Positions 34,701 through 40,700 of a stretch of 64,000 nt of DNA are shown here, one piece after another. A model generated the notes under the pieces. That model did no database searches and was not told the DNA's origin. It worked only from the letters and a program-made list of their open reading frames with translations. The stretch comes from Octopus vulgaris (lineage: Eukaryota). Position 1 is the stretch's first letter, and each line of letters opens with the position of its first letter. The translations under genes were made by a program, and so were the position numbers. The DNA is taken from NCBI GenBank assembly GCA_951406725.2, contig OX597820.1:111600001-111664000 (forward strand). Direction: 5' to 3'.

Positions 34701-37700
34701 TGTGACTACGAAGACCCGACAAATAACGTGAGTTCATGGTTGTTTCCTGCACCAGCTCCAGCCCATTCAAAGTACCTTGGATTGTAGGGCGACCTGCTGT
34801 GCTTGAGGAGACATATTGAGTCAAGTACATCAATATCAAAATAAAAATCAAATGGAAATTGTTGTGATACCTGTGCTAGTGGCATGTAAAAAGCACTATT
34901 CGAATGTGGCCGATGCCAGTGCCACCTTAATTGGCTTCTGTGCCGGTGGCACGTAAAAAGCAGCAACCGATTGTGGTCGCTGCCCCCACCCCCCGGCACC
35001 TGTGCCGGTGGCACGAAAAAAGCACCCACTACACTCACGGAGTGGTTGGCGTTAGGAAGGGCATCCAGCTGTAGAAACATTGCCAGATCAGACTGGAGAC
35101 TGGTGCAGCCTCCTGGCTTCCCAGACCCCGGTCGAACCGTCCAACCCATGCTAGCATGGATAACAGATGTTAAACGATGATGATGATGATGGACCAAACT
35201 CTATAAGAGTCTTTATAATAAGCACAACACAGATGATGACATATAACCCCACAAACTTTCCCATTGACATTGTAATGTGAAATTTTCTAAACCAAAATAA
35301 GATATGAAAAGTATAAAATAATTTCATCATATTGTACACCCATTTTCTCAATTTAGCAAGAAAGGTCACATTTTCTCAAATTTGGTTATCTGCATCAGCA
35401 CAAGACCAAAGATTTTTGCAACTAGATCCATTATGCTAACCACTAAAGAGTTTTGTACAATAAATTGCCTGAAATATAAAGATATAGGACATAAGAACAG
35501 CAGTCATAGTAGTGTGATTTCAATCTTCACAAGAGGCAAAAGCAAAGCATCAACTAAAACCTAGCTGAAGACATGTATGCACCTTTCCATATATCAATAC
35601 TTTATAAATTGATGTCTAAAACTAGAAACCAATGTAGTATAAAACCATCTGACAACACCATTACTTTACAGTTACTATTTTATAACCAATTTTACTATAC
35701 TTGCACAGATGAAATGGCTGTTGCTGCAGAGATCATATTCACAATAAGAATCTCTTCCTATCACTAACCACTCAACTAAAAAATAGGATCAACCTGATTT
35801 TCTTTATTTTTTTTTAAAGTCAAATGAAGGAAGCTGGAAATTACTATTTTTAAATCTCACAACATGAGATATTCAGCAACAGTACTTTGTAGTAAAGTTT
35901 GCTTGCCAACATAACATGGCAGCCCTGGTTTAGGACGAATGTTGCTGTAATTTAGCGCCAGGAGACATCTGGCTATATGACACAATCTGTGTCCTAATAT
36001 TTTCGAACAAAGGGAATCTAGCACCCTCAATCAGCTCAAAATAATATCTGTGTATCGTGATTTCAAGGTTATTTCCCTTCATCAGCACAGAATAATTGTT
36101 TGGCTAGAGGTGGCGCTGCCAAATTCCTGTTTGAAATATATAATTTTCAAAGTGACAACTTGTTACTGATTTATAAATTAGAAAATTACTATTTTTAGAT
36201 CTTACAATGTGAGATATTCAGCAACAGTACTTTGTAGTAAAGATTGTTTGCTAATATAACATAGCAGTCCTGGTTTAGGACGAATGTTGCTGTAATTCAG
36301 CCCCAGGAGACATCGTCTCCAGCTGGCTATACAGCATAATCTGTGTTCTTATATTTTTGAACAAGGGAATCTAGCACCCCCACTCAGCTCAAAACAATAC
36401 CTGTCTATTGCAATTTCCAGGCTATTTCCCTTCATCAGCACAGAATAATTGTTCGACTAGAGGTGGAGCTGGCAAATTCCCTGGGGATAAATTACAGCAA
36501 CATTCGTCCTAAACTAAGACTGCCATGTTATGTTGGCAAACAATCTTTACTATAAATGTACTGAATATCTCACATTGTGAAATTTGAAAATAGTAATTCT
36601 CTAATTTATAGATCAGTGACTAGTTACTTTGAAAATTATATATTTCAAACAGGAATTTGGCAGCGCCACCTCTACCCAAACAGTCTTTTTTGTTGCTTTT
36701 TGAAGAACTCTAGCCGAATTTTTTTGCGAAGCCACCATTGTTGGGTGGTGGTGAATAGCTTAGAAAAACGAGAAGTTATGCAGAAGCGGCTGGAGATTGA
36801 GCTCCCCCAGACCTACATGTGCTGAAACAGGATATGTTAAAGTGGAATGGAGAGCTGATAAAGAAATATAGTAGTATGATAGAGAAGGAAGGGTCAAATA
36901 TAACCCTACCAGAGGAGGAAAAAGTGAAAATGGAAAAGAAGAGTCATATTCAGAACATTTTCGAATAAAAATAGAATTGAACATGTGCCGCAGGATGAAA
37001 GAAATTTTGGAAGAACATATAGGAGACAGTGTAGAGTTCTTTATGAGAGGAAAGAGATATACGTCTATAGTGGCAACCTTTATATCAGAGGAGGGGGCGG
37101 AAAAAAACCTCCAACAAGTTGATACAGGGAGAAAAATGGACTTTGATGCCAAACTATTTGGACAAAAGACTCATCAGAATTAGGGTAGGAAGAATCCCAC
37201 CGTGGATAGAGCCAGAGTGGATAATAGCTGCAATTTTTTATTTGGAGATGAGGAAGGTAAGCGAAGATGTGAAGATGGGCATAAGCCAAACCCAACAAGT
37301 GAAGTGTTGGGGCTACGGATTAGAGATAATCTGTGCAGTGAGCCCGGAATATTACAACGAAATACCTGAAACTTTAGAGCTACCAAATGAAGAAAAGCTG
37401 GAGATAATGTTAGAGGGGAGACCCCCAAAGAATGTGGTGAAAGAGGGTACTTGAAAAAGAAATGTCCTAGAGCAGCAGTGGAAAGTGTAGAGGAGAGTAT
37501 TTTGGAGAATATAATGGTAGAGAAACAGCAGAAAGAGGTAACAGAACAAGACGGGAATTTTGTGGAGGTGAAAGCAAGAAAAAGAGAGAGGAGGAAGTCA
37601 GTAATGATAGTGGAATTGAAGTACAAAGCAACAGAAGAAGAAACCCAACCTACAACGAGAAACAGGGAAGATTTAGCAGTAGGATCATCAGTAAAGGACT

Positions 37701-40700
37701 TACAAATACAGAAACATTCAGACCCACAGACACTCAAAAACACAAAAGTATAGACAAACAGAAGCAAGATAACTCAGAATTATGGAAACCTAAAGACATA
37801 GACACACAGACAAAACATGCAGAATTACAGTCAATCAGACACAATCACAGGGAAGCCAAGAATTACAGAAATACAGAGCCAAAAAAAACCTGACACACAA
37901 GATATAAACGGGAGCAAGAATTTTAAATGAAGTAGGACACCCTAAAAGTTAAAAGAATTTCGAAATTGGAAGACATTATGAAAGAGTGAACTCACTGAGG
38001 CCAGAGGTGGATGTTGAACCTTGCGCCTCAGTGGTGAATTATGGGGACGGAAAGGAGAAATGTTAAGTTGCGATTTATTTTAAAGACTGTGAAAGACCGA
38101 GGAAAACATTTGGTTAAACTTTTTGGTTTAAAAAAAATAAAAAGAAAATAAGTAAATCCTGTAACTATATGAATGAACACTTATTTAAAAACGTTTTCTT
38201 TAAAACTGTAAGGTGAAAATGAAAAGGGAAGTTGTGGTTTCGCCTCAGTGCGGGGCTGGAAATTGTTATTTAAAATGTAAAGTTTTAAAGGAAAAAGGAA
38301 TTCATGGTTTCATCTCGGAGCAGGAGTGAGATAGCCATCTCATTTTCATTGTAATTTAATTCATTTTACATCCATCCTTTCATGTGTTTTTTGTTCCTAC
38401 ATGTCTGTGTATACTCCTCTCTGTGTTTAGGCCTTGTGCCTATAATAAAGAATAAACCTCTAGCTGAACAATTATTCTGTGCTGATGAAGGGAAATAATC
38501 CGGAAATTGCAATACACAGATATTGCTTTGAGCTGAGTGGAGATGCTAGATTCCCTTGTTCAAAAATATAAAGACACAGATCATGTCGTATAGCCAGCTG
38601 GAGACAATGTACCCTGGGGCTAAATTACAGCAACAATCGTCCTAAGCCAGGACTGCCATGTTATGTTGGCAAACAATCTTTACTTCAAAGTACTGTTGCT
38701 GAATATCTCATGTCAGATTTTAAAATAGTAATTTTCCAAACTTATAGATCAATAACTAGTTGTCACTTAGAAAACTATATATTTCGAATGGGAATTTGGT
38801 AGTGCTACCTCTAGCTGAACAATTATTCTGTGCTGATGAAGGGAAATAACCTGGAAATCGCAATACACAGATATTATTTTGAGATGAGTGGAGGTACTAG
38901 ATTCCCTTGTTTGAAAATATAAGGATCATGTCGTATAGCCAGCTGGAGATGATGTCTCCTGGGGCTAAATTACAGCAACATTCGTCCTAAACCAGGACTG
39001 CGATGTTATGTTGGCAAACAATCTTTACTTTAAAGGAAGCAGGGTTAGAAACCTTACTCAAGAATATACCACAAATATCTGCAATAGTGAATATATATAT
39101 GATCAATAGTTTTGGATCTTAACCCATAGATATGAATCTACTCCAGACCACTTCTATAAATGTGCTTAGCTCTCAAATTTTATAATTATATGAATGTAAG
39201 GAAGACCACACCCGTTAAACAGGTTCTTTATTAACTGTATTTTAAACATGATTTTAATATAACGCTATGTATAAACGATAGTCCTATATTAAAACCATCC
39301 AAATTACTGAAAATTTTTGATAATTAACTGAAACCAAATTCAACAAAAACAGTTATAGGTATTGCTTACCAAAGATGCTAGTGTCACAGCATCATCTTTT
39401 TTCTCCTCTTCTTTCTCTGACATTTGACTGAAGAACATACTTTCCAACCAATTTAACGAACCAAATGTACTGAAAAAGGAAAACAGTAAATAAAATTTAA
39501 TGCAAGAAAGGCCCCTAAGCATATGCATGAGGATATGTAGAATTATGTATGTAAAAGTTAGTGAATGTGGGGGTTAAGTTTATTTCCCAACACCACAGTT
39601 CCAGTTGGCCAAAGCTATGTCAGAAGATTTGGTGGACAGACCCTGAAAAAAAGCTCATCACGTATATGTGTGTTTGCGTATGATAGTTGTATCACCTTGC
39701 TTTTCCATTATATGATAGCTGAGTGTCACCATCATACTGGTGGTGTCATTCATTTCAAGTCTTCTGTGTAAAATATGTCTGACCAAGGGAAAATATTACC
39801 TTTCTTGGAAAAAGTGAGAGTTGGCAACAGAAAGGGAACCCAAGTGTAGAAAATTTACTTTGATGAAACTCATCTTACCCATGCAAGCATGAAACAGTGG
39901 ATGTTAACATAATGCTGATGATAAAAAAAGTATATATAACAACAGAATGTTAATATTAGGTTGTCCCAAAAGTTCGTAAACACTTGCGAAAATTAAATTT
40001 TTACTCGCCAAGTACTAACAAAAACAACAAAAATTATTCCTCAAAATAAAGACCATTATTTTCCAAGGCTTTCTACGAACTTTTGGGACAACCTTATAGT
40101 TAAAAATATTATATGTTTATCTAACAGCCGAAAACTTCACTTTAAAACAAGTATAGTATTCTTGTAATGTAATATCTAGAATGTCTGCCAGTAAGAGCTG
40201 TGTAAATGAAGTACTGGTGAAAGCAATCATAGATTTCCTTCATTGAAATACATCAAGTTTTTATATTAATGACACACACATTTAAGGGCAGTGGATTGTT
40301 GCAAAGGTAGAAGATTAAATTAAATACATTACAGCACTTGGTTTTGTCTTATAATTTCTGATTTTAGATTTGCTAGGAGCAACAAAAAGAAGCACCAGTT
40401 GAAGCACTCACTGAGTGAAATTTCCTTTAAGTCACATCCTACCATCTTCTAAAAGAATGCTTTGGATATGTCATTTCTATATACATTGTCTGAATAAAAG
40501 CTGTGATGATAGATAGTGGGGGAGTAATAATTGTCTGTAGATCATACCTTCACTAACAAACAATTTATGAATTTAGATCTATGCAGGACTGACCTGGGGC
40601 TAACCAACATCAAAGTACTAGTAATATACTGAGATGGATTTAATCAACTATATCTCTTTCTCATCAAAAATTAATATTTTTGCTTCATCAAAAAAATTGA

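Follow-up and report, generated by a model that had tools for sequence, protein, structure and literature searches.

A LINE-type retroposon at a fixed site upstream of hammerhead motifs in Penelope-type repeats of Octopus vulgaris

Background

Which mobile elements account for a cluster of hammerhead-like ribozyme motifs in a 64,000-nt stretch of the Octopus vulgaris genome, and what is the other DNA that lies among them? The stretch (GCA_951406725.2, OX597820.1:111,600,001-111,664,000, forward strand; hereafter the window) had been proposed to carry a retrozyme-like family of non-coding ~350-nt tandem monomers at three intronic loci, each monomer having one minimal type I hammerhead and the family being moved by a Penelope-like element (PLE). 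These monomers, here called family A, do lack an open reading frame (ORF). However, 1774 of the 3195 bases in the interval 35838-39032, described in the original prediction as non-coding, belong to another element with a broken ORF: a target-specific insert of the long interspersed nuclear element (LINE) type, which fills over half of the interval and had been overlooked. The explanation that we favor, with a probability of about 0.77, is that of two nested mobile elements, a PLE-type repeat and an L1/Tx1-type element that targets the ribozyme site and has an autonomous partner.

Results and discussion

An ORF1-only retroposon upstream of the hammerhead core

The insert at 36683-38456 contains one frameshifted ORF1-like frame (~36770-37890), in which a CCHC knuckle near 37430-37470 has decayed, and no ORF2. 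Its AATAAA-containing 3' tail is without poly(A) and ends 26 nt before C3 of the motif at 38476-38520. The family is ~1.8 kb long, and the best 40 of 284 candidates were scored. A relative (locus L035) has a Pfam zf-CCHC match (E 1e-5), and the insert ORF is 24% identical to the ORF1 of the autonomous element described below (E 2e-17), with no ORF2 match; Pfam gave nothing meaningful for the window insert fragments, and comparison of the insert ORF with longer proteins gave no match, which is weak evidence. The tails of the two elements are moderately similar, in AT-rich sequence and without a shuffle control. The insert is thus an ORF1-only, non-autonomous element of the L1/Tx1 type at a fixed site upstream of a hammerhead core. 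We rejected the coding body of a PLE between pseudo-long terminal repeats (pLTRs), given the lack of reverse transcriptase (RT) or GIY-YIG sequence, the target duplication and the stacks without repeats between copies, and also an LTR element, there being no terminal repeats.

Insert copies were picked with queries from which the flanks had been excluded. Among 30 copies picked by their body sequence, 25 have a 5' end, and 24 of these are on target: 11 follow family A, 9 follow family B and 4 follow a previous copy, with 1 other. The 3' ends, 23 in number and picked by a 3'-end pattern, lie before family A (4), family B (6), other hammerhead-like motifs (4), the next copy of the element itself after the duplication (5), another element after a target-like stretch (3) or none of these (1), which places 22 of 23 on target. 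In two of the three cases of another element, the neighbor is a further ORF1-only subfamily, itself ending at A or B; in the third it is an element encoding an apurinic endonuclease and reverse transcriptase (APE-RT). Empty target sites outnumber filled ones by 132 to 6 exact matches. Wherever it can be placed, the hammerhead core begins 26-36 nt past the element end on the same strand, and the target site is in the upstream arm of a long helix extending stem I, both in family A and in the family Y described below. Families A, B, C, D, F and Y agree in offset and orientation but not in the sequence that is duplicated. LINE flanks alone revealed at least four more hammerhead-like families (L066, L071, L077, L079, L141 and L148, past position 1526 or the LINE end).

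An intact autonomous partner in family Y

Follow-up of the APE-RT element yielded 20 fetched loci, seven of which form a young, nearly identical subfamily. Both ORFs are unbroken in four of the seven, with an ORF1 of 512 amino acids (CCHC) and an ORF2 of 1140 amino acids carrying Exo_endo_phos, RVT_1 and zf-RVT domains; the nearest solved structure to ORF2 is LINE-1 ORF2p, at 228 bits versus 84 bits for R2. The partner thereby has what characterizes the L1 group, an ORF1 together with an ORF2 bearing an APE endonuclease and RT.

The young LINE carries a 17-bp duplication in family Y, a 362-nt repeat with a U3-A8 hammerhead core whose copies are ~99% identical and form arrays of many units. Array ends fall in (TA)n, at two positions separated by 60 nt, and the unit RNA is predicted to be strongly structured (-124 versus -89 +/- 5.5 kcal/mol, z about -6). 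All 19 exact young 3' ends, representing 14 separate loci, are at the family Y site, 16 before a hammerhead and 3 before the next LINE. Older partner copies are found at A (4), B (3) and F (2), and across all ages 16 of the 20 fetched copies touch a hammerhead repeat site, the other 4 being off target or not placed. The proportions of 19 of 19 for the young 3' ends, and of 24 of 25 and 22 of 23 for the insert ends, exceed the level of target preference, >20% of flanks in one repeat type, that is used in PMC4494074. Young family Y with an intact 5.36-kb LINE can be seen at L135:1430-7839, L138 and L155-L203, and five young LINE 3' ends, mostly separated by the target duplication alone, are in one array of the octopus genome assembly (G000:C2:73046836-73068721).

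Distant L1 relatives from metagenomes end at U1/U5 small nuclear RNA (snRNA) genes (L240:5010-5150, L241:4751-4891, L238:5238-5355), and on the RT tree relatives with such ends occupy a neighboring, weakly joined branch. Among 49 distant metagenome relatives (26-38% identity) with enough sequence beyond ORF2, 1 had a hammerhead within 1.2 kb, at another offset (L275), which is not counted as support. Canonical type I hammerheads near such relatives are at L275:4695-4738 and L277:10-54, at an offset unlike that in G000. RNA reads from three raw runs on the young LINE-Y junction (L172) are only 90-95% alike, come from both strands and almost never fall on Y; the young family is therefore lacking from these runs, and the reads are not evidence. 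In one contig run of guessed RNA, the summed depth was 137-578 on Y versus at most 31 on the LINE, which indicates presence only and is likewise not evidence.

Penelope-type anatomy of the family A arrays

Family A is a 351-nt unit without an ORF and with a type I motif in each unit, present at a median of 2.0 units per locus. The genome-wide monomer search proposed as a check of the original prediction returned 2732 first-look candidates in G000, the best 40 of which were scored (~84-91% identity); exact matches to a 25-nt segment of the motif number 352 in the genome. In the window, the ~350-nt monomer was confirmed at three loci, with 72-89% homology among them. The units are head to tail as predicted, but at each locus they form two arms in inverted, divergent orientation and not a plain tandem array.

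All three window loci follow this same inverted-arm plan, and 18 of 26 independent loci have arms on both strands, nearly all divergent. Array ends are concentrated at monomer positions 205-225 or 250-272, ~50 nt apart (33 of 44, against ~5.5 expected if uniform). An inverted copy with a 'tail' at one end is the insertion signature of PLEs (bioRxiv 10.1101/2021.04.23.441226; PMC11167929), and the inverted 5' arm and two fixed ends therefore identify family A as a non-autonomous Penelope-type repeat, a non-LTR retrozyme of known kind. The retrozyme class and its PLE origin are already in print (PMC7229834; bioRxiv 10.64898/2026.07.22.740005).

The genome also contains an abundant young PLE family with an intact 717-amino-acid ORF (L125:103-2253; L105-L134). 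We take its C-terminus to be GIY-YIG-like from its motifs, though Pfam gave no match for the C-terminal 259 amino acids. In the 3' repeat of this PLE, which terminates in (TA)n, inspection by eye shows a hammerhead-like motif whose core is changed. With this one PLE protein family as the probe, no match was obtained to any family A or Y array locus. The predicted Penelope mobilization is accordingly supported in the insertion anatomy and in the presence of an intact young PLE, whereas a specific PLE partner was not found. Multimeric family A RNA, probably cut at its hammerheads, would be reverse-transcribed and inserted by a PLE RT/GIY-YIG protein, and the family would now be mostly decayed. 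The same evidence bears on whether family A units are instead solo pLTR remnants of a truncated autonomous PLE. Such remnants would share the PLE-type array ends, most PLE hammerheads do occur as remnants (PMC4209133), and a single PLE protein served as the probe; yet the head-to-tail repetition of ORF-free units at the full 351-nt period, the absence of PLE protein matches at the array loci, and the family Y arrays of many 99%-identical units make this origin improbable.

Repeated targeted insertion or hitchhiking

Could a few chance LINE-type insertions have been amplified as repeat cargo by the PLE machinery, with no target specificity at all? Several observations weigh against the nested, site-targeting explanation, and the first two, on recopying and on target labels, also favor hitchhiking. 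Recopying of composites is real, since L171 has an inversion inside the LINE, and L169 and L170 form an inverted pair. Target labels are clustered on the insert tree (31 rows, L049 dropped), with 4 changes against a minimum of 3 and a shuffled mean of 12. Copy counts overstate independent events, 5 of the 19 young ends being in one tandem array and 2 in an inverted pair, and nine of the 23 insert 3' ends belong to loci that are also among the 30. Only 9 of the 14 hammerhead-flanked 3' ends passed the automated parse; L068, L072 and L074 were assigned by homology, and L066 and L071 by eye. Two loci (L139, L083) are off target, and three (L140, L143, L144) were not placed. The Tx1 label is provisional, having been set without named Tx1 references in the comparison. 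Finally, the 3' repeat of the young PLE is unlike A, B and Y, none of which occurs in 112.6 kb of PLE loci.

Nonetheless, amplification of chance cargo is very improbable. It does not account for the common offset and orientation in A, B, C, D, F and Y despite different duplicated sequences, for 5'-truncated copies at the target site (L069, L169), or for element-duplication-element stacks with no hammerhead between, among them stacks of different subfamilies (L084, L085, L086, L150). On the insert tree the host switches from B to A to B, and B-site inserts are nested among A-site inserts, though A and B are 62% alike. Hammerhead-free stacks, truncated copies, per-family duplications and nested B sites thus call for repeated targeted insertion; truncated copies were used for the same hitchhiking control in PMC4494074. 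To judge from the stacks and multi-family sites, hitchhiking appears already largely refuted. Under the nested-element explanation, the insert would have arrived by target-primed reverse transcription at a constant position directly upstream of the hammerhead core. The short motif recognized by the partner's APE endonuclease would lie in the upstream arm of the helix extending stem I, and the partner's ORF2 would mobilize the ORF1-only element in trans. The hammerhead repeat would serve as a multicopy safe target, and some filled repeats would then have been recopied whole by the PLE machinery.

The hammerhead motif and its activity

All seven hammerhead-like motifs were located at the predicted positions, and the spacings of 353 and 351 nt and the predicted cuts after 38514 and 38865 agree with the sequence. 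The core (CUGANGA, GAAA and UH, with stem I closing) is present in the family A majority and in 6 of the 7 window motifs. As for one minimal type I hammerhead per monomer, the fold and the palindromic stem III hold up, but only 2 of the 7 motifs (38476 and 59296) keep the core and all stem pairs; 1 has a changed core, and 4 have lost stem pairs. Stem III is palindromic in the family majority and damaged in 3 of the 7. A loose core pattern matches the window 15 times, against a shuffled mean of 4.9 and a level reached in 0 of 100 shuffles, and the strict descriptor proposed as a check gave 2 matches in the window versus 0 in each of 20 shuffles. The proposed Rfam search found none: no Rfam hammerhead model matches the window at E up to 1, the Rfam scan returning only microsatellite-driven miRNA matches, and Hammerhead_1 has no match at the gathering score in A, B, D, F and Y loci. 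Tandem Repeats Finder did not include the 351-nt arrays in its window output.

Family A copies differ from the majority by a mean of 6%, most change being CpG decay, and to judge by their divergence the window copies are old and decayed. The core and all stems are kept in 11 of 50 sampled copies, and the 25-nt motif piece is exact in 25 of 50, a sample biased toward the best hits. Since the family is old, conservation within it says little, and core columns (0.96) are barely more conserved than other non-CpG columns (0.94). Across A, B, D, F and Y, however, pairing in stems I, II and III persists despite their different sequences, which supports the hammerhead fold for the family group; this is a by-family comparison and not statistical covariation.

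Stem II is flanked by A and G in 34 of 50 family A copies and by A and A in 13, so the G10.1-C11.1 pair directly at the core, highly conserved in hammerheads (PMC4209133) and here sought with no more than one extra base after position 9, is missing from family A unless the flanking bases are read as unpaired extras. In that alternative parse, stem II has 3 bp with one unpaired base on each side; family Y has the pair as G-C or G-U. Such a variant, with unpaired bases flanking stem II, is missed by Rfam. PLE hammerhead variants that cleave as dimers were reportedly the subject of a 2017 paper, which may describe this stem II variant.

How far these motifs cleave is a further question. In its strong form, the original prediction has the window copies still undergoing dimer cleavage and releasing a 351-nt circular RNA. 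Unit-length family A RNA does fold with paired ends (z -1.8), its young relative Y is strongly folded, and mussel repeats of 350-390 bp make circles (PMC7229834). The two intact motifs of the seven are not neighbors, however, the dimer stem III duplexes are weak (-5.4 and -1.3 kcal/mol), the 441-nt motif pair folds no better than shuffles (z -0.4), and 8 of 9 Xenopus dimers remained uncut (bioRxiv 10.64898/2026.07.22.740005, in which 1 of 9 dimers was cleaved and no mollusc was sampled, in the parts available). In addition, four motifs (29411-29455, 36047-36091, 36400-36444 and 59252-59296, the last intact but single) are sense to the SMG1-like pre-mRNA, and this argues against efficient cutting there. 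Present-day circle formation from these copies is therefore quite unlikely. No RNA dataset was listed for family A expression. A less demanding alternative, compatible with the nested-element explanation and deserving some weight although we hold it unlikely on balance, is that the motif derives from a hammerhead but cleaves very slowly or not at all, and has been retained as a structural cue for the PLE protein. The replacement of G10.1-C11.1 by A and G or A and A, the lack of an Rfam match and the finding that cleavage is dispensable for PAc insertion in vitro (PMC11167929) are consistent with this, whereas the kept catalytic core, the stems that pair despite different sequences in B, D, F and Y, and the reading of the motif as a G-C pair with one unpaired base per side speak against it.

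Might the LINE borrow its host's ribozyme?

A tentative extension of the nested-element explanation, possible but less than even in our estimate, is that an L1/Tx1 lineage has specialized on hammerhead retrozymes and borrows their ribozymes, giving three tiers of PLE, retrozyme and LINE with an ORF1-only satellite. The hammerhead of the host repeat would cut read-through RNA some 58-65 nt beyond the LINE 3' end (~58 nt in A, ~63 nt in Y), and the target sequence left on the template would help to prime insertion at the next ribozyme. An upstream hammerhead could free the LINE 5' end, and for a filled repeat the PLE machinery would be an additional means of spreading. Use of a host ribozyme by the LINE to cut its own RNA end is speculative. 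Counting against it, a fixed offset and orientation arise with any sequence-specific endonuclease, the LINE-type elements have their own AATAAA, and cleavage is dispensable for a PLE in vitro (PMC11167929).

Window context

The features of the three family A loci are listed in Table 1.

Table 1. Family A loci, insert and exon context in the window
Feature	Coordinates	Strand	Basis
Family A inverted arm, ~1.8 units, ends at ~monomer position 259 (with 'tail')	35838-36481	-	homology, array ends
Hammerhead-like motif, core intact, stem III 2/3 pairs	36047-36091	-	motif parse
Hammerhead-like motif, core intact, stem I 4/5 pairs; empty LINE target directly upstream	36400-36444	-	motif parse
Family A partial unit (positions 137-346), forward arm start at inversion point	36480-36682	+	homology
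Left copy of 14-bp target-site duplication	36669-36682	+	sequence comparison
ORF1-only L1/Tx1-type retroposon, 1774 bp	36683-38456	+	repeat family, ORF comparison, duplication
Right target-site duplication copy, 11/14 identical to left	38457-38470	+	sequence comparison
Family A forward arm, 1.6 units, ends at monomer position 215 (without 'tail')	38457-39035	+	homology
Hammerhead-like motif, core and all stem pairs; predicted cut after 38514	38476-38520	+	motif parse, strict descriptor
Hammerhead-like motif, stem III 2/3 pairs; predicted cut after 38865	38827-38871	+	motif parse
Family A second locus, inverted arm; motif 29411-29455 (-) with changed core	29199-29767	-	homology
Family A second locus, forward arm; degraded motif 29884-29927 (+)	29761-30072	+	homology
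Family A third locus, inverted arm; intact single motif 59252-59296 (-)	59034-59432	-	homology, strict descriptor
Family A third locus, forward arm (positions 56-214), no motif	59433-59592	+	homology
SMG1-like exon-bearing reading frame (context only)	30361-30561	-	E 2e-11 to human SMG1 residues 1011-1065

The intronic position claimed for the loci is a fair inference from their placement among SMG1-like exons that are collinear on the minus strand, at 12480-12908 (E 0.02), 30361-30561 (E 2e-11) and 63460-63669 (E 0.13), of which the middle one alone is significant by itself; a further SMG1 exon candidate in the window gave no match. Three family A loci within 30 kb (29199-59592) is a far denser grouping than about one per 1-4 Mb, the figure expected from genome-wide counts. 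Other family A clusters appear on C1, C2 and C3, and four sites on one strand, 16-20 kb apart (G000:C8:72228395-72280703), suggest a larger tandem duplication.

Elsewhere in the window, a 94-bp tandem repeat (97% identical) occupies 51699-53361 in two blocks parted by unrelated sequence. Broken RT-encoding LINE copies at 53607-56772 and 33926-34672 are presumably RTE-like, and broken transposase-like frames at 57066-57842 we take to be Tc1/mariner-like. The segments 22780-23262 and 59705-60361 are, by our reading of their motifs, 3' ends of CR1/L2-like LINEs.

Relation to known systems

Family A resembles the metazoan non-LTR retrozymes (PMC7229834; bioRxiv 10.64898/2026.07.22.740005) in its tandem units, which in that class span 150-450 bp with GC <50%, no ORF and one type I hammerhead each; PLEs in the genome are common to both. 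Unlike retrozymes as described there, it has a minimal variant motif with unpaired bases flanking stem II. Its inverted arms and PLE 'tail' ends do not appear in the parts of those descriptions available, which include no cephalopod. With PLE pLTRs and non-autonomous PLEs (PMC4209133; bioRxiv 10.1101/2021.04.23.441226; PMC11167929) it shares a minimal type I hammerhead with palindromic stem III and an inverted, 5'-truncated copy with a tail at one end, and family Y shows the (TA)n insertion bias. Unlike PLEs, family A has no RT/GIY-YIG ORF, and the tail measures ~50 nt (A) or 60 nt (Y) versus 30-40 bp.

The LINE is closest in habit to the Tx1 clade, in which Tx1 inserts in Tx1D, Tx1-Mar in Mariner-N4, Tx1-8_Crp in LTR elements and Keno in U2 (PMC4494074). 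Shared features are an ORF1 with CCHC and an APE-RT, a fixed site in a multicopy repeat, a target duplication, tandem stacking, and a non-autonomous partner with the same target (PMC4494074). Unlike those elements, the target here is a ribozyme-bearing PLE-type repeat, the offset from the core is kept across families at most 62% alike, and the non-autonomous partner retains ORF1. HAL1 and HeT-A are ORF1-only non-autonomous LINEs, which likewise have an ORF1 without ORF2 and are mobilized in trans; unlike them, the insert is site-specific for hammerhead repeats. R2 has its own 5' ribozyme, similar to that of hepatitis delta virus (HDV). Possible reliance on read-through RNA and ribozyme processing would be a likeness to R2, which is co-transcribed with its target (cited in PMC4494074), but the ribozyme here is proposed to be that of the host repeat, cutting beyond the 3' end.

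Known targets of Tx1 elements include other transposons, snRNA genes and microsatellites (PMC4494074; PMC4640811). No report of a LINE with hammerhead or PLE repeats as its target was found in the literature as far as available; such an element may be recorded in Repbase, Dfam, supplements or subscription papers, which lay outside the search. Active L1-Tx1 and Penelope families are included in an octopus repeat annotation from 2026 (PMC13282606), and the words 'hammerhead', 'ribozyme' and 'nested' are absent from its main text as available.

Conclusions

Taken alone, the retrozyme family extends a described class to another animal lineage and brings useful anatomical evidence for insertion by a PLE protein. 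The targeting LINE matters more, as a new target class for site-specific retrotransposons; because its subfamilies have switched between ribozyme families, they offer a naturally occurring set of endonuclease-target pairs. With intact, near-identical copies available for the LINE, family Y and the PLE, it becomes possible to test the use of hammerheads by PLEs, the exploitation of another element's ribozyme by a LINE, and shifts in APE specificity. If the borrowing of host ribozymes is true, a lineage with young intact members would have tracked its target across several diverged ribozyme families.

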